Virus record (IMG/VR): IMGVR_UViG_3300033233_000010
Coordinates: 1 to 64,000 of that record
From: a virus
DNA: 64,000 nt
Reading direction: 5' to 3' (one strand)
Shown here: positions 2,544-58,758 of the stretch, in pieces
How the letters are laid out: every line of letters starts with the position of its first letter
Numbering within the stretch: the first letter of the stretch is position 1
Position numbers and translations under genes: made by a program
Notes under the pieces: generated by a model
What the model saw: the letters and a program-made list of their open reading frames with translations, nothing else
Databases searched by the model: none
Told to the model about the DNA's origin: nothing

Positions 2544-3262
2544 GCGTCGCGCTTGGGGCGCTTGGGCGTCGGTTCGAGCCGCCGGACGTTGAGCCAACCG
2601 ACGCGCATCACCCTACCGTTGAACGCCACGCCGCGGTCGAGCAGGGCGCTTCCGGCGAGCTGCACGGTGAACGACTTCCCGATGTCGACCGCGGGCGCGA
2701 TGACAACGGCCTGCTGCCAGCCGTGCTCCTTCTCCCACTCGCGAGCGGTGAAGATCAGGCGCCCGTGGACGTAATCATCCATCTTGAGATACTCGGCGTC
2801 GGGCGGCCAGCTGCCGTCCCACACCGGAACGCCCTCGGCCCAAGCATCCAGGGCGTCGTCGAGCGTTCGATCCCGTTCGTTCGACCGCCACGCGCGCTCC
2901 TCAAGGCCGGGAACCTCGACCACCTCGCCCTTCGTGATGTGCTGGTTCTGCCAATCGCAGCTGCGCTCGAACCGTCTCTTGGCCTTCTGAATCTTCTCCC
3001 ACTCGTCGAGCTTGGCAAGGTAGGCCAGTCGGTCCTGTATCGCCGCCCGGACGACTTCCTTTCCCTTTTGGAACACGAAACGCTCACCGTTCACCCACTC
3101 GACCGTGATGTAGGTCCGGCCATCTTCGCGGTCGCGCTCGACGAAGCGACAGATGCGCCCCGCCCACCTCGGATCGGTGAACCCGTTATTCAGCACGCGC
3201 CAGAACTTCGGCGGGACTTTCTTCTTGCGCTTCGCGTCGGCGGCGAGCCGAACGAGGGTCAC
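2540..3262 (-). CDS. hypothetical protein
   Basis: GTGA coupling with the 3259 stop; GC3-biased frame. Confidence 0.7.
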   Translation of the reverse strand: MTLVRLAADAKRKKKVPPKFWRVLNNGFTDPRWAGRICRFVERDREDGRTYITVEWVNGERFVFQKGKEVVRAAIQDRLAYLAKLDEWEKIQKAKRRFERSCDWQNQHITKGEVVEVPGLEERAWRSNERDRTLDDALDAWAEGVPVWDGSWPPDAEYLKMDDYVHGRLIFTAREWEKEHGWQQAVVIAPAVDIGKSFTVQLAGSALLDRGVAFNGRVMRVGWLNVRRLEPTPKRPKRDA

Positions 3263-3504
3263 GGCCTCACCTCGATCTTGGCGATCATGTCGACGACGCT
3301 CGGACCTCTGTGGAACGTCCCGCAGGAACACCCGCCGTAGAGCACATCGCATCGGGCGCCCGGCCCCAGGCCCTCGTGCTTCTGCATGAGGTCGATGTCT
3401 AGCGCGCCGTCGTAGAAGCAGCACGCTTTGAGCTGGTCGAACGTGTGGCGATGCCGCTCGGGGTTGGCCTTTATGTCGACGAGGATCTCAGCGCGTCTGC
3501 CCAT
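3259..3504 (-). CDS. Cys-rich hypothetical protein with C-terminal tag (SVVDMIAKI)
   Basis: ORF track; coupled to neighbours. Confidence 0.7.
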   Translation of the reverse strand: MGRRAEILVDIKANPERHRHTFDQLKACCFYDGALDIDLMQKHEGLGPGARCDVLYGGCSCGTFHRGPSVVDMIAKIEVRP

Positions 3505-4051
3505 CGTCGCTCCGCCGCATCCTGGTGTTCGTGTGGAGCACCAAGGCCGGTTCGCCGTATCCGTCGACCGTCACTTCGATCTGGTCATCGTTACTGACAG
3601 CCGCGATGGCGCGGACACCTTCCTCATAGGACGGCGGTGTGGGTCGGAGCCGCCCCACGAGCAGCTTCAGGGCGTCGCGTTCGCCCGCTCTGAGCTTGCG
3701 ACCTTCGCGCAACCGCCGCGAGATCCGCAGCACCCGACTCCGCGCGTCTCCGACGAGCGCATCGAACCGACTGGTCTTCTTGGGAGCGGTCAACCCGTCG
3801 TGGACCAGCGTAGTGGAACGGCTTAGGCCGTCGATCGGGTAGGAGCGCTCAAGGCGCTCGGTTTCCGTTTCGAGACCTCCGCGCGCCACTTCTTTCAGGA
3901 AGGCGTGGGCCGTCTCGACAGAAACCTTGGCCTCCAGCGCCAGCCATCCCGCGAACTTGAGGCTCGCGAGGTCGTCTGCCGGAAAGCCGAGTCCGTCTGT
4001 AACTCGGTCATAGGCACGAGCGAGGCGCCCGCGCTCGGTAGGTTCGGCCAT
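3488..4051 (-). CDS. hypothetical protein
   Basis: ORF track; GGTAGAAC 6 nt upstream of ATG. Confidence 0.75.
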   Translation of the reverse strand: MAEPTERGRLARAYDRVTDGLGFPADDLASLKFAGWLALEAKVSVETAHAFLKEVARGGLETETERLERSYPIDGLSRSTTLVHDGLTAPKKTSRFDALVGDARSRVLRISRRLREGRKLRAGERDALKLLVGRLRPTPPSYEEGVRAIAAVSNDDQIEVTVDGYGEPALVLHTNTRMRRSDDGQTR

Positions 4052-35153: not shown

Positions 35154-36008
35154 GTGACGGACGCGAAACGACCGCTGCCCTATCTCATCGCGCGCATCGC
35201 CCACGACGGCAGGCCGTGGCCGGATGACGGCACCTTCGATAAGATCGCGGCGTCCAAGGGGGCCATCCTCGGCGATGACGGTTGGTTCACGCGCGGTCGA
35301 CGCCGAGGCCGGTGGTATCTCGACGTGTCGCTGGCGAACTACGCGCCGATCATCGTGGCGCGCGAAAGGCTCAACGACATCCGCGCGCTCGAAGACCTGC
35401 GTTACCGCGCACAAGTCCACGTCGAGAGGGTACTGGAGCCGCTCTATCAGAAGTCCATCGCTCGGCTCCGGGCAGCTGACGACCCGCGGATCGTCCGCGG
35501 CGACAGGATCATGCGGATCGAGTTCACCAAGGACCACGTCTACTCGTCGGAGAGCTTTCCTACCGAGCGGGAGATCAAGGCCCCGGAGAACGCCGGAATC
35601 GTCGACAGGATCAGCGCAATCCCCACCCCGGACCACGAAGACTTCAAGGCCGGAGAGAACTGGCTGTTTCATCAGCGCGGAATCCACGCGGGTCTGTTCC
35701 GCGTGGGTCGCGCGGAGGCGGCGCTTCGCAAGGCGCTCGACCTCTACCGCCTCAAGCACCACCCGAAGGAGATGAGACTCCACTCGGACAGGCGTCCGAC
35801 CTTCGTCTTCATCATCAACGGGCGCTACTACCCGATCGGGCGCGAGGAGTACCAGAAGAACATCGTCATCTGGCCGCAGCTGTCCGACATCGTGGTCAAC
35901 TTAGACAAGGAGAACACGCGTGGCGAAGATCAAAGTAGTGGACGAGCTTCCGCCCGAGGTAGTGGCGATGCTCGCAGCTCTGTACTCGCGAAGCCCGAAG
36001 AGCGTTGA
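35154..36008 (+). CDS. hypothetical protein (internal GIVDRISAI)
   Basis: GGTAGAAC 6 nt before GTG. Confidence 0.75.
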   Translation: MTDAKRPLPYLIARIAHDGRPWPDDGTFDKIAASKGAILGDDGWFTRGRRRGRWYLDVSLANYAPIIVARERLNDIRALEDLRYRAQVHVERVLEPLYQKSIARLRAADDPRIVRGDRIMRIEFTKDHVYSSESFPTEREIKAPENAGIVDRISAIPTPDHEDFKAGENWLFHQRGIHAGLFRVGRAEAALRKALDLYRLKHHPKEMRLHSDRRPTFVFIINGRYYPIGREEYQKNIVIWPQLSDIVVNLDKENTRGEDQSSGRASARGSGDARSSVLAKPEER

Positions 36009-36075
36009 CGAGCATCTGGAGCAGGTTCTCAAGCGTGGCCCCGACAAGTTCATGGACGACTACTACGTCGGCTAG
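35920..36075 (+). pseudogene. orphaned original 5' end of thyX (51 codons)
   Basis: SD AAGGAG; MAKIKVVDELPPEVVAMLAALYSRSPKSVDEHLEQVLKRGPDKFMDDYYVG* is colinear with the ThyX N-terminus at 36915. Confidence 0.85.
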
Positions 36076-37078
36076 GCTGGCAGTAGATCGCCTACGCTGT
36101 TAGCCTGTCAACGTGGCCCATCGGATCTTGCCGCAAGAACACGTCCGTCGCGTCATCGAGATACACGGCACGCGTCTTCGTGTCGTAGACCACTACGTCG
36201 ATGCCCACACGAAGATCCGCTACGAGTGCCCGAGGCACGGACGGTTCTGGGCAGCGCCGAAGAACGTAGTCACCAGGCGCTCGGGTTGCCGTCGGTGCTA
36301 CGAAGCGACGGTTGGTCCACGGTGCCGAAAGACCCACGCGGTCTACACCGCGGAGGCGCGTGCCGTCGGGATTCGAGTAATCGACCGCTACGTCACCGCT
36401 CTGACGCCGATCCGACATCGATGCGCTAAGGGTCACACCTGGAGCACGTCACCGAACCAGTTGCTCTCGGGCTATGGATGTCCGCTCTGCGACCGATCTC
36501 AATTCAGGCGCCGCCCAGTTCGAGTCGGGAACCGGGAAGTGATGCTCCAAGGTTCCGAGGGAGTAGCTGTTGCACTCATGCTTGCCGCCGGTGTCGATCC
36601 TGACGACCTGGCGTTCACAACCGCAGAGGGCCGCCCGACGTTCCGATACAGATTCGACGGTCGGGTTCGCGTCTACGTGCCCGATGCCTTTCAGCTTTCG
36701 GTGCGTCAGGTCATCGAGGTAAAAAGCGCGGTAACGCTCGGGCTCTACGACTCGACACTGTTTGCGCAAGTGAAAGCCAAGGCCCGAGCCGTCGTAGCTG
36801 CCGGACTCTCGTATCGGCTGATGGTCATCCACCGGAAGCAAAACATCGACATCGGTTCGAGCTGGTTTCGGTGGTCGTGGCGAACACTTAACACGCGATT
36901 CAGGAGGAAGACCCATGCCCAAGATCGTCGTTCTCGACGGAAACGACGTTCCTAGCCCGGAAGACGTGGCGATGCTCGCAGCCATGTACTCACGAGATCC
37001 GCGATCGGTGCTCGACCATCTCGTCCAAGTGAAGCAACGCGGCTCGGCGAAGTTCCACGAGCAGTTTTATGTGGGCTA
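36075..37078 (+). mobile_element. homing-endonuclease cassette carrying a replacement thyX 5' end
   Basis: Bounded by ...GGC TA at both junctions; contains the endonuclease ORF plus a diverged thyX N-terminus. Confidence 0.75.
36113..36955 (+). CDS. putative homing endonuclease: zinc-ribbon repeats plus PD-(D/E)XK (TnsA-like) nuclease
   Basis: ECPRHG...GCRRC; RCAKGH...GCPLC; YVPDAF...IEVKS. Confidence 0.75.
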   Translation: MAHRILPQEHVRRVIEIHGTRLRVVDHYVDAHTKIRYECPRHGRFWAAPKNVVTRRSGCRRCYEATVGPRCRKTHAVYTAEARAVGIRVIDRYVTALTPIRHRCAKGHTWSTSPNQLLSGYGCPLCDRSQFRRRPVRVGNREVMLQGSEGVAVALMLAAGVDPDDLAFTTAEGRPTFRYRFDGRVRVYVPDAFQLSVRQVIEVKSAVTLGLYDSTLFAQVKAKARAVVAAGLSYRLMVIHRKQNIDIGSSWFRWSWRTLNTRFRRKTHAQDRRSRRKRRS

Positions 37079-38246
37079 CGGTCACAAGAGCATCGGCGAC
37101 TGCGGCTCGACGACGGTCTTCTTCGAGGGTGTCTCGATGTTGGCGGCGAAGGCCGTGCAGGACACCCCGCTGTACAACGGCCAGGAAGCCTCGACACGCT
37201 ACATCGACTTCTCCACACAGCTGATTCTCAACCCGCTCGCAACGCCGGGTGGGAAGGCTGTGCAGGACGCCTGGATGGCGCTCTACGCAGACACCATCGC
37301 GGCGCTCAAACCGCTTCTCGCCGAGCGCTACCCCCGGCAACCAGACCAGAAAGAGTCGGTGTGGACGAAGGCGATCGCCGCCAAAGCGTTCGACATCGGG
37401 CGGTCCCTGATACCAGCCGGCGGAACCACCAACGTCGCGTGGCACGTCAACCTGCGCCAAGCGTACGACCACAGCCGGGAGATGCGGAATCACCCGCTCC
37501 CCGAGATCGCCGGCCTTGGCGTGGGCGGAATCGAATGCCTGAAGGAGAAGTACCCGTCGAGCTTCTCCCACGAGGCGAAGCTCAAGGACGACAAGGCGCG
37601 CGAGAATTACAAGGCGGAGGAGCACTACATCGCGAAGAGCATGACGCGCTTCGCTTACTTCGCCGACACCGACGCCGTAGACGGGTTCTACGCCGACTTC
37701 GGCAAGCTCGACCTCCGCGCGATGGAGCCGCTCGGCGACCTCCTCGCCTCGCGACCGCCGCGGACCGAGCTGCACCAGCGCTTCCGCCAGTACGGGGTGA
37801 TCACGTTCAAGTTTCTCCTCGACTTCGGCAGTTACCGCGACCTCCAGCGGCAGCGGAGCGCTGTGCAGGAGATGCCGCTCCTCTCAATGCGCCACGGCTT
37901 CCACCCGTGGTACATCGAGCAGATGCCGCTCGGAACCGAAGCGCAGATCGCAGCGATCGGCAAGCTGGTCGAGCGGCTCCCAGCCGACGACTTCACCCGC
38001 CAGTACTACGTGCCCATGGGCTTCCGCTGCCCGGTCGTGATGACGTGTCCGCTCCCCTCGGCGGTCTACATCGCCGAGTTGCGAAGCGGGAACACCGTCC
38101 ATCCCACCCTCCGCGTGATCGCGCAGAAGATGGGCGAAGTGCTCAAGAAGACGATCCCCGAGCTGGCGATGCACCACGATATGTCGCCCGACTCGTGGAA
38201 CGTGAGGCGCGGAACGCAGGACATCGTAAAGAAAGCATCGGCGTAG
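36915..38246 (+). CDS. thyX: flavin-dependent thymidylate synthase (two-domain ThyX/Thy1)
   Basis: YGHKSIGDCG, EASTRY, DFGSYRDLQRQR, YIAELRS. Confidence 0.9.
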   Translation: MPKIVVLDGNDVPSPEDVAMLAAMYSRDPRSVLDHLVQVKQRGSAKFHEQFYVGYGHKSIGDCGSTTVFFEGVSMLAAKAVQDTPLYNGQEASTRYIDFSTQLILNPLATPGGKAVQDAWMALYADTIAALKPLLAERYPRQPDQKESVWTKAIAAKAFDIGRSLIPAGGTTNVAWHVNLRQAYDHSREMRNHPLPEIAGLGVGGIECLKEKYPSSFSHEAKLKDDKARENYKAEEHYIAKSMTRFAYFADTDAVDGFYADFGKLDLRAMEPLGDLLASRPPRTELHQRFRQYGVITFKFLLDFGSYRDLQRQRSAVQEMPLLSMRHGFHPWYIEQMPLGTEAQIAAIGKLVERLPADDFTRQYYVPMGFRCPVVMTCPLPSAVYIAELRSGNTVHPTLRVIAQKMGEVLKKTIPELAMHHDMSPDSWNVRRGTQDIVKKASA

Positions 38247-47780: not shown

Positions 47781-48962
47781 CTACTTGTGGTGGAACTTCT
47801 TGAGGGTTTGCGCCAACCTCGCGCGCTTGCCTTCCTTGCCACCCTTCTCGGCGGCGGCGGCGAGCTTCCCGGCTGGGATCTTCTTGCCCTCGGGCACGCC
47901 CATCTGCTTGTGGAGCGCGCCCTTCTTCATGTGCATCGCGGCGATCCACTTCTTCGCCTCGTCGAGCTGCATGCCGGCGGTCCGATCTTCGGCGACCTCG
48001 GCCTGGGCAGACGCGTCGCGAAGCGAAGCGGCGCCGACACGCGCCTCGCGGAGCATGCTCGCGCTCGGCTGGCTCACGCCCTCCTTGACGGTGATGTCGT
48101 CCTTGGCGAGCGGTGCGGTGCCGCCGTTGGCCGAGTTGAACTGGCCGGGCTCGACCTCGGCGGGCGAGCGGAGCTTGCCGCCGAGACCCTTGAGCGCCTT
48201 GCCGATCTTCTCGCCCTTGGGCTTGGGCACCGACTCGCCCTCGACGGCGGGCTCGGCGTCGACGGGCGGAGTCGTCGTCTCGGTCGTCGGCTTCACTCCG
48301 AGGTCGGCTGCGTTGCGGAGCCTGGCCGCGTCGTCGGCGGCGAACTGCGCGATGTCGGCGATCGTGAACGCCGGCTTGTTGCTCACGCCGGTTCCGAGTT
48401 CGAGCGCCGGGTTCGACTCGTGCTGAGTCTTGAGCGACTTTTCCAGCGCAGCGCCGTCGACCAGCATCGGTCGTTCGAGGAACGCCGTGGGGAGGCGCAT
48501 CGCGGCTCCGGCGTTCCCGGACGTGGTCATCTCGGCGACCAGCTTGTCCTTCAGGGCCGGGAGATCCTCGATCGCGATGTTGAGGATCTCACCGGCGACG
48601 AACTGCTTGATCGCCTTGGCGTCATCACCACTGACACCGTACTGGCGCATGTCGGGCACGCGTCCCATGCGCATCGCCACCTCGGCGATGCCCATGACGA
48701 TCGTCGGGTTGAGCCCACGATCCTCGGCGAACTTGTCGATCTCGGTCTTCCGCGAGTGGAGGACCAGCTCGCGCGTGTCGGGCGACATGAGCTTGGCGTC
48801 GCGGCTGAACCCGCCCACCGGCGCTTCGAGCGGCGAGTCTTCGTCCATGCGCATCGCGGCGGGAGAGTTGAGCGCAGCGCCGGGACCGCCGCTACGAACC
48901 CGATGGTTCGCCGGATCGCTCGGGTCCCACTTGTTCTTGCCGTTCTTTCCGTTGGTACTCAT
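47781..48962 (-). CDS. candidate virion protein, paralog A, with basic C-terminal KWI...GALH...GVPEGKKIP domain
   Basis: Shares three blocks with 48959-50692; C-terminal domain recalled from other phage proteins. Confidence 0.75.
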   Translation of the reverse strand: MSTNGKNGKNKWDPSDPANHRVRSGGPGAALNSPAAMRMDEDSPLEAPVGGFSRDAKLMSPDTRELVLHSRKTEIDKFAEDRGLNPTIVMGIAEVAMRMGRVPDMRQYGVSGDDAKAIKQFVAGEILNIAIEDLPALKDKLVAEMTTSGNAGAAMRLPTAFLERPMLVDGAALEKSLKTQHESNPALELGTGVSNKPAFTIADIAQFAADDAARLRNAADLGVKPTTETTTPPVDAEPAVEGESVPKPKGEKIGKALKGLGGKLRSPAEVEPGQFNSANGGTAPLAKDDITVKEGVSQPSASMLREARVGAASLRDASAQAEVAEDRTAGMQLDEAKKWIAAMHMKKGALHKQMGVPEGKKIPAGKLAAAAEKGGKEGKRARLAQTLKKFHHK

Positions 48963-50692
48963 CGTTCTCCTCGTAGTACGGCAGCGCCGACGCCCGATCC
49001 GCGAAGCACCCTAGCGCTGGGGGTGTCCAGGTCTTCCTTCACCGAGATGTCGAAAGCCGGAAGCGTGGCGGTGCCATGCGAGGCGTTGTTGAACTGCCCC
49101 GGCTCCGCTTCGGCTGGCGACCGCAGCTTGTTGCCGAGCCCCCTGAGCACCCGACCGATGCGCTCACCCTTGGGCTTCGGGATTGTGTCCTCGGAGAACA
49201 CGTCGGCGAGCGTGTGGTGCTGCTCGGTGTGCTCCTCGGGGAGTCCGGCGAGCTTGCGACCGTGCTTATGCGCGGCGGCGAACGCCGCATCTCCCTTTGC
49301 CCTGTCGGGGTGCTGGAGGACACTCTTCCAGTCGCCAGCCGCCATGTGCTTGAAGAGGTCGCCGAAGTGGGGATCGTCGTGGGCTTGCTTGGCAAGCTCC
49401 GCGGCTCCGGCTTGGGCGTGCTCGGTGGAAGTACGGTTCTTCGGATCGGACTTCTCCGCCTTCACCTTCGCCATGATCTTGTCCATCATCCCCTGGATCG
49501 GCGACTTCGGCTTGGCCGCGGCCTGCGCCGCCATCTTCGCGTGTTGAGCGGCCAACTTCGCCTCGCGCTCAGCCGCGGCCTTTTCAGCGGCCTCCTTCTT
49601 CGCCTTCTCTTGCCCTTCCTTCTTCGCCTTCTCCTCCGGGGTATCGGGCTGGTCGAGATCGAGCTTGGAGAAGCGCTTCCAGATGTGCGAGTCGACGCCG
49701 GGGGGCACGGGCTTCTCACCGGACTTCGCCGGTTCGGCTGCGGCAGATGCAGCCTTGGGCGCGGGTCCTGCCGTGGGCTCCGGCTTGGCGTCCGCGTTGT
49801 GGATCGGGTGATCAGGCGCGTGCCCCATCGAGCGAGGCACGCCGAAGACCATCTTCCAGCCTTCGGGGAGATGCCCCTTCGTCTTGAGCTGCGCGAGCGC
49901 CGTCGACTGCTCCGACGTGAGCTTCTTGGTGGGGTCGATGTGGTCCGAGTGCGGCGAGCCGGAACCGTAGTGGATGTTCAGGCTGTGACCTGGCTTCACG
50001 TCGAGGTGCCCGATGCCCTTCATCGCGATGGAGTGAAGCACGGGGCCGGGCGTGACCTTGCCCCAGTCGGCCTCGTGCTTCTCCTTGTGGCCCTTCGTCT
50101 GTTGGCTGACCCAGGCTTCGAGATCCTTGTGGACCTTGTGCTGAGGGGACTTGACCGCGTGCTTCGTGTCAGGGTTGCTGCTGCTCGGCTTGCCATGCTT
50201 GACGACGTGATGCACAGCCGCCTTCACCGGCTCCGGCAGATCCTTGAAGTTCTGGTGCTTGGTGAGGTCGTGGATCGTCGGCGTGCCCTCGAAGTTCTCC
50301 ACGACTGGGCGCAGAGCGCGACGGGCGTCCTCGTCGGCGAGCTGGGCGATGTCGGCGATGGTAAGCGCCGGCTTGTCGGACACGCCCGTCCCGAGGGAGA
50401 GCGTGGGGCGCGTGTTCTCGCGCTCGGCGATCTGTCGCTCCAGCTGACCGATGTCGATCATCGCGGGACGGCTCATGATCGCGGAGGCGAGGCGCATCGC
50501 CTGGGGACACGCTGGAGCATCGGCGCCGGAGTCCTCTTGCAACGGGCGGGGCTCCGTCTCGGGCTCCGGCGTCGGCTCCTGCTCCAGCGCCGGGAACATG
50601 GCGGAGGTGAGAGAGGCGCCAGGCCCGCCGTTACGAACCCGGTGATTGGCGGGATCGTTCGGGTCCCACTTCTTCTTGCCGTCCTTGCTCAT
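48959..50692 (-). CDS. candidate virion protein, paralog B, with large His/Lys/Ala-rich insert
   Basis: WDPNDPANHRVR, GTGVSDKPALTIADIAQ and KPKGE.IG..L.GLG.KLRSPAE blocks shared with paralog A. Confidence 0.75.
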   Translation of the reverse strand: MSKDGKKKWDPNDPANHRVRNGGPGASLTSAMFPALEQEPTPEPETEPRPLQEDSGADAPACPQAMRLASAIMSRPAMIDIGQLERQIAERENTRPTLSLGTGVSDKPALTIADIAQLADEDARRALRPVVENFEGTPTIHDLTKHQNFKDLPEPVKAAVHHVVKHGKPSSSNPDTKHAVKSPQHKVHKDLEAWVSQQTKGHKEKHEADWGKVTPGPVLHSIAMKGIGHLDVKPGHSLNIHYGSGSPHSDHIDPTKKLTSEQSTALAQLKTKGHLPEGWKMVFGVPRSMGHAPDHPIHNADAKPEPTAGPAPKAASAAAEPAKSGEKPVPPGVDSHIWKRFSKLDLDQPDTPEEKAKKEGQEKAKKEAAEKAAAEREAKLAAQHAKMAAQAAAKPKSPIQGMMDKIMAKVKAEKSDPKNRTSTEHAQAGAAELAKQAHDDPHFGDLFKHMAAGDWKSVLQHPDRAKGDAAFAAAHKHGRKLAGLPEEHTEQHHTLADVFSEDTIPKPKGERIGRVLRGLGNKLRSPAEAEPGQFNNASHGTATLPAFDISVKEDLDTPSARVLRGSGVGAAVLRGER

Positions 50693-50809: not shown

Positions 50810-51193
50810 TCAGTTCGGTCCGGTTCCGGCAACGGCCCGAGCCATGTCCTCGCGCGTTCGCTTGCTCGGGCCGAAGTAGAACGCCTTGGCGCCGAACAGA
50901 CGAACGGCGTAGTAGTACCGCCACGCCGCGAACCTGTAGAACAGGCGCTTGAACCAGGTGCTCTGCCTACGCGCGTGTTCAGCCATCGCCTTGTGGAACC
51001 GCCGGTCGGCATCGTAGCGATCACGCTTCGTGCAGCCGAGCCAGTAGTCGAAATCGTGAGTCTCACATGGACAACCGAAAACCAGATCTGGAATTATCCA
51101 TGAGATGCCTCTAGGTCCGCACCCGTTACATACCGCCTTCCGTTCGGCTGGCGTAAGGTCTTCAAACCGTAAGGGACGAGCCGGAGTGGTCAC
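50810..51193 (-). CDS. phage NGCG...CxxHDxxY protein (phospholipase-A2-like HD motif)
   Basis: NGCGP...IPDL.FGCPCETHDFDY..G....R..AD..F. Confidence 0.6.
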   Translation of the reverse strand: MTTPARPLRFEDLTPAERKAVCNGCGPRGISWIIPDLVFGCPCETHDFDYWLGCTKRDRYDADRRFHKAMAEHARRQSTWFKRLFYRFAAWRYYYAVRLFGAKAFYFGPSKRTREDMARAVAGTGPN

Positions 51194-51915
51194 TTGATTA
51201 CCCTTGCGATCTTCCAACCGTGATGAGCTATCTTACGCCCATGCACAACCTCGTAGAACCCCCATTCACCCATTCCGCGCTCGCGGCAAAAGACCTTGAG
51301 GTTGTCAGTCTCGAAGACAGTCCCGCTCGGATCGGTGATCGTGTAGCGAAACGTGCAGTGCGCCTCGCTGATCTTACGCCGATGTTCGGGCGTCTTTGGT
51401 TTTCCCGTGTGCAGGCAGCGTAGACGCTCGACTTCCTTTAGCGAAAGACGACGACCCAGGTGCGTCGCGCTAATCTTTGCCCGCGCCTCCGGCGAGTGTG
51501 TCTGGCCCCACATCGAGTTCTTCTTGCCGAGCTTGCACACCCGCATCTTCCTGATAGAGGCTGAGCGATGGCGTCTGCCGAAACCGCCGAGACCTCCCGG
51601 TGTGCAGTTGTAACCGTTCTGAATAGATGCCAGCCTGGCGATCCAGTGCCGCTCGGCGGTATCAAGTTCGGCTTGGTTAGAACACGCAGCCACCACTGAC
51701 ACTGTAAACGCGGTCCAACCATACTTGGCTATTGCGCACGCCAGCTTAGGCTGTCTTCGGCAATGACCTCTTCGGTAATTGTCCAGGCGATGCGCTAGAT
51801 CAACCGTCTGCCCGACATAGACACGACCACTCGGGCTACGAAGACAATAGACGACGCCGAAGTGGTCGCACGCAGACTCAAAGACGAAATTCGATACGCT
51901 GCTCTCGATACTCAA
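51065..51915 (-). mobile_element. GIY-YIG cassette carrying a recoded replacement 5' end of its target gene
   Basis: Both junctions follow the G-C-P-C codons; duplicated N-terminus is synonymously recoded. Confidence 0.8.
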
Positions 51916-52032
51916 ACACGGACACCCGAAGATCAGATCGGGGATGATCCACGAGACGCCCTTGGGACCGCAGCCGTTCGAGACAGCTGCGATCTCTTGC
52001 TTGGTCAGGACTTCCCAGGTGATCGAGGTCAC
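51190..52032 (-). CDS. GIY-YIG homing endonuclease with NUMOD3-like repeats, fused in frame to the original 39 codons of the target gene
   Basis: GVVYCL...VYVGQT...R...Y; HS.E...KIS repeats; NGYN. Confidence 0.9.
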   Translation of the reverse strand: MTSITWEVLTKQEIAAVSNGCGPKGVSWIIPDLIFGCPCLSIESSVSNFVFESACDHFGVVYCLRSPSGRVYVGQTVDLAHRLDNYRRGHCRRQPKLACAIAKYGWTAFTVSVVAACSNQAELDTAERHWIARLASIQNGYNCTPGGLGGFGRRHRSASIRKMRVCKLGKKNSMWGQTHSPEARAKISATHLGRRLSLKEVERLRCLHTGKPKTPEHRRKISEAHCTFRYTITDPSGTVFETDNLKVFCRERGMGEWGFYEVVHGRKIAHHGWKIARVIK

Positions 52033-52035
52033 GCG

Positions 52036-52347
52036 CTAGTCCGTGAAGCGGTACGAGAAGCTCTGGTGCCCGGCGTCCTTGACCTTTACGGTGACGGACC
52101 CATCGCCCTTGGTGCCGAAGCTCGGTCCGAGCGTGAGGACGAGTTTGCCGTTGGCGTCGAGCACCCCATCCACCGGAGAAATGTACATGGGCGCTGTGGT
52201 CTCCAGCGTGACCTTCTTGCCCGCCCCCGCCGTGCCGTTCTTGTGCTCGATGGTGAGCTTCTGCAACGAGGACTGATCGCCCTTGACGAGAACGGGTGCG
52301 CCGCTCTCGATGGCGGTGTTGTCTTTCTTGACGACGAAGCCAGCCAT
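52036..52347 (-). CDS. small beta-rich (Ig-like) putative virion protein
   Basis: Beta-strand pattern; SD GGAAGGA; structural block. Confidence 0.55.
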   Translation of the reverse strand: MAGFVVKKDNTAIESGAPVLVKGDQSSLQKLTIEHKNGTAGAGKKVTLETTAPMYISPVDGVLDANGKLVLTLGPSFGTKGDGSVTVKVKDAGHQSFSYRFTD

Positions 52348-53587: not shown

Positions 53588-56500
53588 TTAGGCCACCAGC
53601 TTGAGCAGAATGAGAGACCGGTTAAGCATCGAGCCGGTGCCAGCCGATACGCGCCAGCGTCCTTCTACTGCACCGACTCCAGTTGTCGTAATGACCGCGC
53701 ACGTCATAAACGGGGTGCGGTAGTTCGCGTTGTGCTCGTCTGAGCCCGCTTCCGTTCCCGAAACCTGTGAGCCGTTGAACCAAATGCTCACCGTGCTCAG
53801 AGCCGTGGCTGTCGAGTTGCCGTAACCACCGCGGAAAATCGCCAGCCAGACCCCCGCCGTGGGGGTGTCGGTCATGCTCGTCGCGAGCACGTCCGTCGTG
53901 CTTGCCGTCGTGATCGTGCCTGTGGCAACGACCGGAGTACGGGCGCGAGGCGGAGTCGCCGTCCCTATGGCTCGCCAGCGCGAGGACGTGTTGTCGTAGA
54001 GAAGCACGACGCACGCCGAGGGGGCGAGGTTGATGTCCGCACTGTCGAACGTGAAACGGTTCGCCGCCGTGGACGACGCGCTCTCGTGCAGTAGTGAGAT
54101 GACGAAGCTCCCTGTGTTGACAATGACGAGCATGCGCCCGTCTGCGCCTGTCGCGATGCCCGTAATGTTTCGGGCCGCGTCGGTGTTGATTCGGAGCAGC
54201 ACGACGTTCGAGAGCCCAGTCGGGGAATAGTCGTTCTGGTTCGCCGTGATCTGCGCCGGGGAAAGCGTGCCGTTGAGCGAGAACGCCCCCGAGGCGCGTT
54301 CGACGGTGTTCGAGGCGTTGCGCCACCGCGACGACGTGCCGTCGTAGGCGAGCGTGATCGAGTGCCCAGGGCCGAGCACCACGTCAAGAGAGGCGAACGA
54401 GAAGCGGTTCGCCGCCGTGGACGAAGCCGACTCGTGCGAGAGCGTGATCGGGAATGAGCCCACGTTCTCGATGACGAGAATGCGACCTGTGGCGCCGCCC
54501 TGGAGGCCGGTGACCGTGCGCGCGGCGTCCGAGTTGATGCGCATGGTGTTCGCCGTCGAAAGGCTCGCAGGGTTGTAGTCGTTCTGGTCGGCGGTAATCT
54601 GCGCTGGACTGAGGATACCGGCAAGCGCGAAGGCGATGCTCGATTGTTTGACGGTCGGATTGGCGAATGTTCCCGACAGGTCTCCGCCCGCCGCGCCCGT
54701 TGGAGTGCGCGCGTCGGACAGACGCGCATCGTCACCCTGACAGAACGTGCCAGTAGCCGAGCCGAACGCCGCCAGCGCGTGTACGTGGTCTGCACGAGAC
54801 AGCGAAGTCGATGTTCCCTCAGCGTTAGCTGAGCCAGGCGGGTTTGCTGCCGCCGCTGCGGTAGTAATATCGTGCTTGTGGTCGGCTCTCGCAGGCTCCC
54901 CGCTTGTGCCGATAGCCGCAGCCGCTTTCGTGACGTTGGCTGGCGCGGTGTTCGACTGGTGGGCGTGATCGGATCGGGCAAGCGTCGTCGCGGTTCCTTC
55001 GGCGGATGCGGTAGCCACACCCGTCGCAGCCGGAGCCGCTGTGGTCACATCGTGCTTGTGATCGGCCCTGGCCGGCTCTCCGCTCGTACCAATGGCGGCA
55101 GCGGCCTTGGTTACGTTTGCGGGCGCGGTGTTGGACTGGTGGGCGTGGTCGCTGCGGGCAAGGGTCGAAGCCGTGCCCTCCGCAGAAGCGGTCGCGACGC
55201 CGGTAGCGCCGGGGGCAGCGGTCGCCTGGCGCGAGGCAGAAACAGCACGCCACCTAGTAGAAGTGCTGTCGTAGTGAAGTATGACGCACTCATCGGTCTG
55301 AAGTACTAGGTTGGCGGCGTCGGTAAGCGCGAATCGGTTTGCTGCGGTGGACCCAGCGCCCTCGTCGGTCAGAGTGATGGGAAACGAACCGACGTTATGG
55401 ATCGCGACGACGCGACCAGACGAACCGGTAGTCAGGCCGGTGATGCTGAATCCGGGTGTAGAAGCTGAGAGACGCAAGAACGAGGCGGTGGCAATCCCGG
55501 TGGGGGCGTAGTCGTTCGTGTTGGCTGCAATGGTCGTCGGCGTGATGACTCCGTCGATCGCCAACGTTGCCGCGAAGACGCCTCTGTTGTTGTCCGCGAC
55601 GAGCGCGCCAGCGACACGATAGCCGCCGAACTGCGTGTTGTAGTCCTGCTGCCTGAGACCGCTCGCGGCCCATTGGTTGTCCATGCCATGAACAAAACCT
55701 CTGGCGGCGAGCGTAGCTGCGTAGGTCGCGCCGAGAGACCACTGACCGTCGTCGGCGTGGACCTCCGCGAAAGTGAGCGTCCCATCCTGGTCCTCGATGT
55801 GAAGCAGGATGTCGCCCTCGGCTTCACCAGCCGAAATGAAGACGCCGTTGCCGGATGGGCCGCCTCGAAAGGCCGCAAAGTAACCGGCTGGAATCGGACG
55901 CGTAGCGTCTGCCGGCCCCACACGGAGCCGCGAGCATGCCGAGATGGTGGAGGCTCCGAAAACTCGCCATCGGCTCGACGTGGAGTCGTAACGGATGATG
56001 CAGCCGTCTTCGGGGTTGAGCGTCAGGTCCGTCCCGTCTTGGAGCGAGAAGCGGTTTGCTGCGGTAGATCCCGCACCCTCGTCGGTCAACGTGATGGGAA
56101 ACGAGCCGACGTTGGTCAGAACGAGCAATCGACCGTCTGCGCCGCCCGTGATCCCCGTGATGCTGAACCCAGGTGTCGAGGCGCTAAGACGTAGCGTGTT
56201 CGCCGTGCTCAGGCCAGTCGGGGTGTAGTCGTTCTGGTCAGCGCCGATGGTCGTGGGGGAGATGATGCCGGTGAGCGCGAACGTGGTCGAAGACTGGAGC
56301 ACGAGAGGGCCGGGGTACGTTCCGCCGAGATCCTGCGAGGCTGGTCCCGATGGCGATCCGCCGCTCCCGCCACCTGAGATCGCACGCCAGCGCGAAGTAG
56401 TGCTGTCGTACTGAAGGAGCGCAACCGAATCGGGAGACATGCTCATGTCGGCGGTGAGCGCAAAGCGGTTTGCCGCCGTCGAGCCCGCATCCTCATCCTT

Positions 56501-57424
56501 GAGCGTGATCGCGAACGAGCCGATGTTGTGAACGACCAGAATTCGACCGCTTGCCCCTCCCGCCAGTCCGGTGATATTGAACGCACCCGATGACGTGAGC
56601 CGCAGGACGGCGGCGGTCGAGAGGCTGGCCGGGTTGTAGTCGTTCTGATTCGCACCGATAGAAGCCGGACTGAGCACACCGGTAAGCGCAAAAGCGATAC
56701 TGCTTTGTGCAACTGTGGGGTTAGCGAAGGTTCCGCTGAGATCACCGCCCGCCGCTCCCGTCGGAGTACGCGCATCCGAAAGCCGAGAGTCGGTACCCTG
56801 ACAGACCGTGCTCGTCGTCGTCCCGTATGGGTCGTCTGCTCCGATCGCCCGCCACCGAGCCGACGTGGCGTCGTACTGGAGTGAGATCGTCTTGTTCGGC
56901 GTGAGGATGAAGCTCGCCGCTCCGCGGAGCGAGAATCTATTCGCCGCTGTGCTGTTCGTGTCCGAGTCAGTCAGCGTGATGTTGAACGATCCGACGTTGT
57001 GGACTTGGACCAGCCGTCCGGTTGCGCCTGCCGCGAGGCCCGTAACGTTTACCGCCGTCGAAGCTGCGATGCGGAGAAGCCCGGCGTTGCCGAAGCCAGT
57101 CGGGTTGTAGTTGTTCTGGCTGCTGCCGATCGTGGGCGGCGTGAGCACCACGTTGCCGGCGTTGTTGGCCGCCTCCGTGGGCGGGGTCGGATTGTGCGCG
57201 GCGATAAGACCACCGGCGGGGTTGCTCGTGTCGTTATCGAGCGTCGTCTTATCCCCGGCGGAGAGGGCGCTGACGAAGGTGATCGAGAGCACGTCGCCGT
57301 TGCGCGAGATGTCCTGAAGCGCCGTTGCGATGGAAGACGCTCTGATCTCGATGACGAGATTGTCCTCGAAACATCCGCCGGACGGGAAGTCGGTCGTGAT
57401 CTGATAGGTATAGCTCTGGGCCAC
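53588..57424 (-). CDS. long tail-fibre-like protein with six ~105-aa QNDY.P.GL...AANRF...YD..S.RWR modules
   Basis: Modules counted by eye; AR(S/A)DH(A/K/V)H and GGDLSGTFANPTV repeats; GTG start overlaps upstream TAG. Confidence 0.8.
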   Translation of the reverse strand: MAQSYTYQITTDFPSGGCFEDNLVIEIRASSIATALQDISRNGDVLSITFVSALSAGDKTTLDNDTSNPAGGLIAAHNPTPPTEAANNAGNVVLTPPTIGSSQNNYNPTGFGNAGLLRIAASTAVNVTGLAAGATGRLVQVHNVGSFNITLTDSDTNSTAANRFSLRGAASFILTPNKTISLQYDATSARWRAIGADDPYGTTTSTVCQGTDSRLSDARTPTGAAGGDLSGTFANPTVAQSSIAFALTGVLSPASIGANQNDYNPASLSTAAVLRLTSSGAFNITGLAGGASGRILVVHNIGSFAITLKDEDAGSTAANRFALTADMSMSPDSVALLQYDSTTSRWRAISGGGSGGSPSGPASQDLGGTYPGPLVLQSSTTFALTGIISPTTIGADQNDYTPTGLSTANTLRLSASTPGFSITGITGGADGRLLVLTNVGSFPITLTDEGAGSTAANRFSLQDGTDLTLNPEDGCIIRYDSTSSRWRVFGASTISACSRLRVGPADATRPIPAGYFAAFRGGPSGNGVFISAGEAEGDILLHIEDQDGTLTFAEVHADDGQWSLGATYAATLAARGFVHGMDNQWAASGLRQQDYNTQFGGYRVAGALVADNNRGVFAATLAIDGVITPTTIAANTNDYAPTGIATASFLRLSASTPGFSITGLTTGSSGRVVAIHNVGSFPITLTDEGAGSTAANRFALTDAANLVLQTDECVILHYDSTSTRWRAVSASRQATAAPGATGVATASAEGTASTLARSDHAHQSNTAPANVTKAAAAIGTSGEPARADHKHDVTTAAPAATGVATASAEGTATTLARSDHAHQSNTAPANVTKAAAAIGTSGEPARADHKHDITTAAAAANPPGSANAEGTSTSLSRADHVHALAAFGSATGTFCQGDDARLSDARTPTGAAGGDLSGTFANPTVKQSSIAFALAGILSPAQITADQNDYNPASLSTANTMRINSDAARTVTGLQGGATGRILVIENVGSFPITLSHESASSTAANRFSFASLDVVLGPGHSITLAYDGTSSRWRNASNTVERASGAFSLNGTLSPAQITANQNDYSPTGLSNVVLLRINTDAARNITGIATGADGRMLVIVNTGSFVISLLHESASSTAANRFTFDSADINLAPSACVVLLYDNTSSRWRAIGTATPPRARTPVVATGTITTASTTDVLATSMTDTPTAGVWLAIFRGGYGNSTATALSTVSIWFNGSQVSGTEAGSDEHNANYRTPFMTCAVITTTGVGAVEGRWRVSAGTGSMLNRSLILLKLVA
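54773..55215 (-). repeat. in-frame tandem repeats carrying RxDHxH motifs
   Basis: ATGVATASAEGT...LARSDHAHQSNTAPANVTKAAAAIGTSGEPARADHKHD twice, plus a partial third unit; boundaries approximate. Confidence 0.8.
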
Positions 57425-58758
57425 TAGGCTGTGACCTCTTCGACGAGCAGGCTCGCGCTTTCGTCTTCGCGCGTGATCGGCCTTACTTGCCCCGTCCCGG
57501 AACTGACGCGCCATTGAACGACAACGACGTGAGCGCCAGCTGTGAGTCCTGTGAGCTTGAGGCTTACGGCCATGGCCGTGACGCCCGAGCCACCGTTGGA
57601 TTTCGTGCTGCCACCGCGCCGAACGATGCCATCCACGACCACGCGGAAGAAGACGACAGCGTTATTCGTTCCGTTCGATGCGCTTCCAAGCGACTGAACG
57701 ATGAGCGCACCGCCGGTGGTCGTGATGTCGATTCTGAGCACATCCTGCGTCGTCGCAGTAACGTCGGCGACGAGACCGCCGGTGCTCATGGTTCCGGTGC
57801 CACCCGTACAGCCAGTGAATTGATTGCCTCCGCTCGTCCCGGTGTAGGACACGAGTTGCGGGCCGTTACTGGTCGTTATCAGAAGCGTGCCGGCGGCGGC
57901 GAAGCCCGTCGTCGAGGCGACGTTGATGGTTCCAGTAGGCAGCGAGACGCCGTTGGAACCGGCTGCGATCGTCGTTCGGAGTCGGAAGAATACGAGGCCG
58001 CCGGTGCTCATGGTGCCGGTGCCGCCGGTACAACCGGTGAAGGTCGTGGCGCCTGTGCCCGTGTAGGTAACGATCTGCGGACCCGCGCTCGTCAAGACGA
58101 CGATCTGTCCGGCAGCGGCGAAGCCCGTCGTCGAGGCGACGTTGATGGTTCCAGTCGGCAGCGAGACGCCGTTTGAGGCCGCAGCGATGGTTGTGTTCGC
58201 CGCAGGCCACGTCGTCGCGGTCGTGGTCTGATTCGACGTGACTTCCGTCCACTGCGTCTGAACGATTCCACCAGCGCCGGAGGCGCCGCCAGCCGCGCCC
58301 TGAATACGCCAGCGAGATGACGTAGCGTCGTAGGCGAGGGTAACGATGGCACCGCCGACGAGCGTGACGTTGCCACCAGCAAGCGTGAAGCGGTTGGCCG
58401 CGGTCGAGGAAGCAGACTCACTGATGAGCGTGATCGTGTTCGAGTCGATGTTGATGAGCGTGAGAAGGCGCCCGCTCGTTCCTCCAGCGATGCCGGTGAT
58501 GTTGACGGCGACCGAAGACGTGAGTCGAAGTGTTGACGCGGTCGCAAGCCCGGTCGGGCTGTAGTTGTCCTGGTTGGCCGCGAGCGAAGTCGGCGAAATG
58601 ACGCCGGTCAGCGCGAACGTCTCGGAACCGGCAATCGCTTTGAGGAGAGTAGCCCGAACAGCGGGAAGCGTGGGAGTGCCGCCATCGTCCACGAGGGCAA
58701 CGATGTCTCCGATGAAGGTGTTGATCTCTCGGATCTGGTCGGCGGCGATCCCACTCAT
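57424..58758 (-). CDS. tail-fibre-like protein with one QNDY-type module and two ~68-aa tandem repeats
   Basis: TTIAA(A/G)SNGVSLPTGTINVASTTGFAAAG...FTGCTGGTGTMSTGGLV twice. Confidence 0.8.
   Translation of the reverse strand: MSGIAADQIREINTFIGDIVALVDDGGTPTLPAVRATLLKAIAGSETFALTGVISPTSLAANQDNYSPTGLATASTLRLTSSVAVNITGIAGGTSGRLLTLINIDSNTITLISESASSTAANRFTLAGGNVTLVGGAIVTLAYDATSSRWRIQGAAGGASGAGGIVQTQWTEVTSNQTTTATTWPAANTTIAAASNGVSLPTGTINVASTTGFAAAGQIVVLTSAGPQIVTYTGTGATTFTGCTGGTGTMSTGGLVFFRLRTTIAAGSNGVSLPTGTINVASTTGFAAAGTLLITTSNGPQLVSYTGTSGGNQFTGCTGGTGTMSTGGLVADVTATTQDVLRIDITTTGGALIVQSLGSASNGTNNAVVFFRVVVDGIVRRGGSTKSNGGSGVTAMAVSLKLTGLTAGAHVVVVQWRVSSGTGQVRPITREDESASLLVEEVTA

Follow-up and report, generated by a model that had tools for sequence, protein, structure and literature searches.

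The locus described here belongs to an uncultured phage and lies in IMG/VR virus record IMGVR_UViG_3300033233_000010, within a window comprising the first 64 kb (positions 1 to 64,000) of this 121,783-bp record (GC content 64.7%; CheckV completeness about 42%). It couples a gene for a small protein related to phospholipase A2 (PLA2), here called PLA2-like, with a nuclease gene, and all of its genes are encoded on the minus strand. Two overlapping open reading frames (ORFs) make up its center. ORF A (52032-51190; GTG start, 280 amino acids [aa]) opens with a stub of the PLA2-like protein and then continues, in frame, into a GIY-YIG/NUMOD3 nuclease. ORF B (51193-50810; 127 aa) encodes a full-length member of a small phage PLA2-like family, and its GTG start sits inside a GTGA overlap (51193-51190) with the stop of ORF A. 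This layout had been described in a first reading made from the letters of the window (hereafter the sequence-only reading), in which a GIY-YIG ORF opens with 39 codons of its target and the next gene is GTGA-coupled to it at 51193, and it was reproduced in our analysis.

Followed in the direction of transcription, the old and apparently native PLA2-like N-terminus (51916-52032) spans 39 codons from the GTG of ORF A and forms an in-frame leader of the nuclease ORF; this stretch, residues 1-39, ends in NGCGPKGVSWIIPDLIFGCPC. The nuclease body (51190-51915) extends from a TTG lying exactly at the junction (51915-51913) to the TGA at 51192-51190. ORF B then begins with NGCGPRGISWIIPDLVFGCPC, which runs on into ETHDFDYW. 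Its codons 1-43 (51065-51193), starting at the GTG in the overlap, constitute a second, new N-terminus, whereas codon 44 to the stop (50810-51064), which begins with ETHD and contains His46-Asp47, appears to be the native C-terminal part. The new codons 1-43 meet native codon 44 without an insertion or deletion relative to the family, and the rebuilt gene is full-length. An AAGGG lies 7 nucleotides (nt) 5' of the ORF B GTG, within the 3' end of the nuclease sequence. Upstream of ORF A, a gene for a 103-aa immunoglobulin (Ig)-like protein with a weak Big_1 match (52036-52347, minus strand) stops 3 nt before the old GTG, and translational coupling from this gene to ORF A is likely. Promoter and terminator prediction on the minus strand between 50600 and 52500 returned none.

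The family to which ORF B belongs comprises 2363 cluster representatives at E<=0.001, which are single-domain proteins mostly of 110-140 aa. A profile of six members matches the solved PLA2s 4aup (E 1e-6) and 1faz (E 3.8e-6), aligning the H-D of a C-x-x-H-D-x-x-Y helix with the catalytic dyad of both structures; H46, D47, and Y50 are invariant in 75 of 75 sequences. Against Pfam PF09056, ORF B scores 17.8 bits, below the gathering cut-off of 29.4, and we therefore name it only "PLA2-like"; four homologs carry a precomputed PF09056 match. The AlphaFold2 model of ORF B has a predicted local distance difference test score (pLDDT) of 90.8 and an all-helical PLA2 fold, and its top five Foldseek matches in the PDB are all microbial PLA2s (probability 0.92-1.00; template modeling [TM] score 0.43-0.56), weak as these matches are by E-value (0.04-0.6). 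Profile and model alike suggest that ORF B is related to the prokaryotic/fungal secreted PLA2s of groups XIII/XIV. The end of the N-terminal repeat, at codon 43, falls at the start of the modeled catalytic helix (residues 42-52), two codons upstream of H46. With this HD aligned to that of solved PLA2s by the family profile, the earlier placement of the insertion directly in front of the catalytic HD is borne out.

Five other members of the family (P0067, P0077, P0109, P0115, and P0173; 148-172 aa) match the profile in two stretches and carry an insertion of 30-50 aa past about residue 74, another site at which the PLA2-like family varies in frame. The family, with its more than 2000 cluster representatives, is phage-encoded, and the gene described here stands beside tail-fiber and Ig-like genes. 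Might the PLA2-like protein be a virion-borne lipase for entry or exit?

ORF A carries two domains above their Pfam cut-offs: GIY-YIG (PF01541; residues 59-142, positions 51607-51858; E 2.6e-8, 34.5 bits against a cut-off of 22.6) and NUMOD3 (PF07460; residues 152-188, positions 51469-51579; E 6e-12, 45.7 bits). When ORF A is aligned with 10 homologs, no variation is seen at G59, Y62, Y72, G74, R82, or E127 and very little at N142. The same homologs begin 1-17 residues before the GIY strand, where ORF A has 58. Annotated phage Seg-like homing endonucleases match ORF A in tblastn only from about residue 40-55 on, at about 30% identity; one weak Seg-like match begins at residue 17. In the AlphaFold2 model of ORF A, pLDDT exceeds 88 for residues 60-140 and ranges from 33 to 51 for residues 1-54—low values that are expected for the leader, since the alignment contains no homologs for it—and helical repeats occupy residues 157-226. 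These features predict a GIY-YIG homing endonuclease of the Seg/I-TevI type with apparently intact catalytic and DNA-binding modules. Up to the GIY motif, the TTG at the junction is the sole canonical start codon in frame. That the nuclease borrows the translation start of its target, as had been proposed, is plausible, though tempered by this TTG and by the corresponding stub at thyX (see below), which ends in a stop.

Codon-by-codon comparison of the old and new N-termini shows 18 of 21 residues to be identical across a 21-aa core. Synonymous codons differ at nine of these 18 residues, and at eight of the nine the downstream copy uses the A/T-ending form. The codon table thus gives the same numbers as the sequence-only reading, which had reported 18/21 identity and different codons, mostly A/T-ending downstream, at 9 of 18 residues; the similarity reaches beyond that 21-aa core, spanning 36 aligned codons with 24 identical residues. 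At the DNA level, 49 of the 63 core positions are identical (78% of 63 bp), with a longest exact run of 6 nt. Queried by tblastn against its own phage genome, ORF B matched the upstream copy at E=2.8e-14, and a six-frame self-blastp of the 121.8-kb record returned the N-terminal duplicate at E=1.45e-13; judged by these alignments, the N-terminal duplication is far beyond chance. The point at which homology between the two copies stops coincides with the predicted empty-allele join, that is, 52032-51916 with 51064 onward.

Codon composition marks out the same boundaries. The GC content at third codon positions (GC3) is 0.79 in the old 39 codons and 0.65 in the nuclease body. Within ORF B, it is 0.45 over codons 1-44 and 0.82 thereafter, compared with 0.85-0.88 in neighboring genes. 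Across a background of 2469 windows of 44 codons drawn from 94 likely genes, the genome GC3 has a mean of 0.84 (standard deviation 0.086), and windows at or below 0.5 account for only 0.7%. If the genome rate applied, at least 24 A/T third positions (AT3) among these first 44 codons of ORF B would be expected with a probability of 7e-9; under the rate seen in the nuclease, the probability is 0.006. Taken in successive blocks of 22 codons, the GC3 of ORF B is 0.50, 0.41, 0.77, 0.86, 0.91, and 0.67, which shows that the GC3 switch coincides with the repeat end. In the closest uninterrupted relative (P0030, on contig L026), GC3 is 0.92 across the gene, its first 38 codons included, so a GC3-poor start is not a trait that the family shares. 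At third codon positions, L026 agrees with the old stub at 58% of sites, with the C-terminal part at 48%, and with the new N-terminus at 19%. Together with the GC3 values, these identities make the stub and the C-terminal part look resident, and the nuclease and the new N-terminus imported. The putative inserted cassette, delimited by the ends of the repeat homology and the GC3 switch, measures 851 bp (51065-51915, minus strand) and would comprise the nuclease ORF plus a replacement 5' gene end. This cassette, above all its new N-terminus, is compositionally foreign.

About two dozen full-length relatives of the PLA2-like gene were compared, all of them distant (<=61% aa identity). Among 21 loci on viral contigs, 20 (L021 included) have one contiguous full-length gene with N- and C-terminal parts, and the 21st, L023, has an N-terminal fragment only; the complete metagenome loci are also contiguous. 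Neither an adjacent nuclease nor a second N-terminus was found in the viral or metagenome loci compared, although L007 has a GIY-YIG homolog about 4 kb from its PLA2-like gene. The presence of the nuclease is therefore sporadic, with homologous loci that lack it, all distant, and none of these nuclease-less relatives carries both N-termini. The closest uninterrupted relative, P0030 (L026:3633-3983; 61% aa identity; contig GC 64.8%), was dismissed as a true empty allele on account of that identity and of its lack of synteny outside the gene. The search for empty alleles suggested by the sequence-only reading thus recovered distant uninterrupted genes, up to 61% identical, and no close empty allele. 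Neither the region nor ORF B gave a match when 50,697 phage records were queried with blastn and tblastn, and single-protein scans of viral contigs using ORF B, the neighboring 183-aa gene, and the nuclease body were negative as well. The exact 26-nt pattern taken from the new N-terminus is absent from the viral contigs scanned. A search for other N-stub fusions likewise returned none, which is weak evidence.

The fragment-bearing locus has a peculiarity of its own. On L023, an unrelated 5.3-kb viral contig, positions 3257-3719 hold a 71-nt direct repeat (96% identical, spacing 392) that covers the end of one ORF together with the ribosome-binding site and start of the next. Between the repeats lies an 82-aa ORF ending in the PLA2-like N-terminal fragment, which stops after CNGCGPKGL; this fragment is a lone N-terminal stub of the PLA2-like family.

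A six-frame self-comparison of the record revealed one other local duplicate of the stub/nuclease/intact-gene type, at thyX on the plus strand. Here, an old thyX N-terminal stub of 51 codons (35920-36075) is closed by a stop codon at the junction; a 52-aa alignment of this stub with the beginning of the intact gene shows 58% identity (E 4e-12). A nuclease-like gene of 280 aa (36113-36955) stands between the two thyX starts and combines DUF7487, a treble-clef zinc finger, and CapR, making it unrelated to GIY-YIG. The intact thyX, with its apparent replacement N-terminus (36915-38246; Pfam Thy1, E 7.5e-16), has a start that overlaps the 3' end of the nuclease-like gene. GC3 is 0.78 in the stub, 0.68 in the nuclease, 0.72 in new codons 1-54, and 0.88 in the rest, a weaker contrast than at the PLA2-like gene. 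In a record-wide family search, GIY-YIG and DUF7487 each matched once and HNH_3 not at all, so both nuclease genes found with the three families searched show the layout. The parallel with thyX that the sequence-only reading had drawn is borne out by this self-comparison, as is its statement that the nuclease there comes from an unrelated family. Its further description of the architecture as general in this lineage would be a generalization from two loci in one genome.

We consider it probable that the PLA2-like locus is an intron-less, intein-less homing cassette (51915-51065), in which a GIY-YIG/NUMOD3 nuclease travels with a replacement start—Shine-Dalgarno sequence, GTG, and codons 1-43—for the PLA2-like gene that it interrupts. 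The core of this explanation, an old N-terminus followed by an inserted nuclease and a differently coded new N-terminus, had already been put forward from the sequence, and it is now backed by the composition break at the junction, by uninterrupted single-copy genes in every full-length relative fetched, and by nuclease homologs that lack the first 40-55 or so residues of ORF A. During mixed infection, the nuclease would cut uninterrupted alleles near codon 43, close to the conserved sequence that codes for the active site, and repair would copy the 851-bp cassette, with homology arms provided by the old stub and the C-terminal part. Because its bases differ, the new N-terminus would lack the nuclease's own site in the rebuilt gene, while sequence differences between the direct repeats would stop recombination from deleting the nuclease. 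For its own translation, the nuclease would use one of two starts: the old GTG, through coupling to the upstream gene, or the junction TTG.

A number of observations weigh against this explanation. Close relatives of the phage, whether carrying the cassette or lacking it, did not turn up in the searches, so that we infer the insertion rather than see it as a polymorphism, and L026 is not syntenic with the window outside the PLA2-like gene. No second copy of the cassette was found in the scans, which leaves its current mobility unsupported, and a strong Shine-Dalgarno sequence is missing at the old GTG as well as at the junction TTG. When segment identities to 155 family members were compared, P0030 was nearest for both N-termini, and a donor lineage is not singled out. 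Counted on the codon table, A/T third positions in the new N-terminus are enriched to about the same degree whether or not the residue is identical in the two copies; a homeolog from a lower-GC3 donor therefore fits as well as selected recoding. Accordingly, the earlier term "recoded new N-terminus" survives in part: a differently coded copy does restore the gene, but recoding is not separable from a diverged homeolog of a lower-GC3 donor, and on the codon data the two would fit equally well.

Some of the same points lend substance to an account that we nevertheless regard as unlikely, in which the locus arose by a one-off rearrangement. A free-standing endonuclease gene, located directly upstream of the PLA2-like gene in a donor phage, would have been acquired along with the donor's 5' part, the right end being formed by homeologous recombination and the left end by an illegitimate join; the stub would have been left by accident, and the unit would not home as a cassette. 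The failure to find another cassette copy or N-stub/nuclease fusion agrees with such a history, as does the uniform AT3 enrichment over the new N-terminus, and the TTG that may be the nuclease's own start marks the left boundary exactly, as it would for a joined free-standing gene. Yet the layout recurs at thyX with an unrelated nuclease, and the structure, once formed, has both homology arms for homing, the distinction thus concerning history more than present capacity.

Two further accounts were dismissed. The two N-termini are each other's closest matches in the 21-aa core (18/21 versus <=15/21 for any of the 155 family members), a relationship that speaks for tandem PLA2-like paralogs whose first copy was later mostly replaced by a free-standing nuclease, the "recoding" then being ordinary paralog divergence. 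Paralogs of the same genome should, however, share codon usage, and GC3 is 0.45 in one copy and 0.79 in the other; the low-GC3 tract also ends at the repeat end, inside one gene, no relative has tandem copies, and the truncation point coincides exactly with the nuclease start, all of which makes tandem paralogy very improbable. Removal of the insert by RNA or protein splicing, as a group I intron or intein next to an incidental downstream N-terminal copy, could draw on the old stub being in frame with the insert and on the insertion site, since introns and inteins typically occupy conserved active-site regions such as this one. We find it scarcely credible all the same: no Rfam family matches between 50000 and 53000 at E<=1, leaving no sign of a ribozyme core; Pfam detects only GIY-YIG and NUMOD3 in ORF A and no Hint/intein domain; the insert begins with Leu, not Cys, Ser, or Ala, and ends with a stop codon that precedes the C-terminal part; and the new N-terminus has its own Shine-Dalgarno sequence and start and joins the C-terminal part in frame.

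Elements that replace one end of a gene are known from fungal mitochondria and yeast. The mitochondrial mORFs form "gene hybrids" in atp6 of Allomyces macrogynus and in atp6, atp9, cox2, and nad3 of Glomus (PMC3630166 and its ref. 48, Paquin et al. 1994). The phage cassette resembles them in that an endonuclease ORF (LAGLIDADG or GIY-YIG in their case) lies within a protein gene without an intron, and in that a diverged, apparently foreign gene end is in frame with the gene core while the native end is kept as a remnant. Low DNA identity but high amino-acid identity between duplicates is a further likeness, shared with Glomus atp6, where the values are 63.5% and 91% (PMC3630166). Unlike the phage cassette, which replaces the 5' end, mORFs lie downstream of the gene core and exchange its 3' end (C-terminus), and their hosts are organelles rather than phages. 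Because the 5' end is replaced, the phage cassette must bring a ribosome-binding site and a start codon of its own, and what was the old stub now serves as the nuclease leader. The WHO elements of Torulaspora/Lachancea (Coughlan et al. 2020) are homing elements that cut an allele of FBA1, a housekeeping gene, and replace its 3' end at each integration (PMC7282813). They, too, replace one gene end without protein or RNA splicing, but they differ in targeting the 3' end, in encoding an intein-derived LAGLIDADG-zinc finger protein, and in residing in a eukaryotic nuclear genome. Mobility of the Allomyces mORF has been shown biochemically, and allele-specific cleavage by WHO elements has been shown experimentally, whereas for the phage cassette both are predictions from sequence.

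Among phages, a partial parallel is the MobA element of T4-like phages (mobA plus the gene 60 bypass cassette; Bonocora et al. 2011, as relayed in 10.1101/2022.08.31.505936). By that secondary account, MobA is likewise a phage homing element whose insertion point inside a gene is a metal-binding site; it removes a small part of the target and carries a diverged homologous replacement (HomR), in which it resembles the cassette described here; and it has a feature that shields the rebuilt site from its own nuclease, as is predicted for this cassette. The same account has MobA (HNH) splitting a topoisomerase gene into two polypeptides, with protection by a 50-nt translational bypass. In contrast, the PLA2-like gene stays one polypeptide with an entirely exchanged N-terminus, and only base substitutions would protect its rebuilt site, if it is protected at all. 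ORF A also resembles Seg-type GIY-YIG endonucleases (T4 SegB, PMC2330249; reviewed in PMC2988022) in being an intron-less phage gene that combines GIY-YIG with NUMOD3. Unlike Seg genes, which lie between genes and are copied with flanking markers, it lies inside a gene together with a rebuilding piece. By analogy, the precedent of gene-end-replacing elements would support the cassette explanation (PMC3630166, PMC7282813, 10.1101/2022.08.31.505936). In the literature, we found no published phage case of a replaced 5' gene end, which is absence of evidence only. Set beside the fungal, yeast, and MobA designs, the phage locus appears distinct in its replaced 5' end, its own translation signals, and its single polypeptide.

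Other duplications occur among the neighboring genes, all on the minus strand. Downstream of ORF B, a 577-aa gene and its neighbor (48018-49189, 48864-50686) share segments, namely a 28-aa N-terminal stretch that is 79% identical (48864-48947 versus 50603-50686) and a 73-aa stretch that is 63% identical (48018-48236 versus 48971-49189); the two look like adjacent paralogs with a common leader. A 1308-aa fiber-like protein (53588-58689) contains at least five internal repeats of about 100 aa each, which are also present in the region 58303-58689 at 46-57% identity.

To our knowledge, homing endonuclease genes either sit between genes or invade coding sequence solely as part of self-splicing introns or inteins. 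The phage locus would represent a third route, in which the element rebuilds the gene it breaks by bringing along a spare 5' end, and the predicted target of its nuclease is the reconstructed junction of 52032-51916 with 51064 onward. In phage genomes, such a route would account for chimeric genes and for short N-terminal ORFs that look like "orphans"—stubs and chimeras that mislead gene callers, pangenome clustering, and single-gene phylogenies—and would provide a natural counterpart to engineered cleave-and-rescue gene drives. We advance a broader proposition tentatively, giving it slightly less than an even chance: unrelated families of phage nucleases may routinely "cut the empty allele and carry a resistant spare," with the PLA2-like gene and thyX as two independent instances. 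Under this proposition, a differently spelled 5' end would at once rebuild the target, remove the cleavage site, and block loss through the repeats, the stranded start would become the leader of the nuclease, and the element could thereby invade active-site sequence without an intron or intein.

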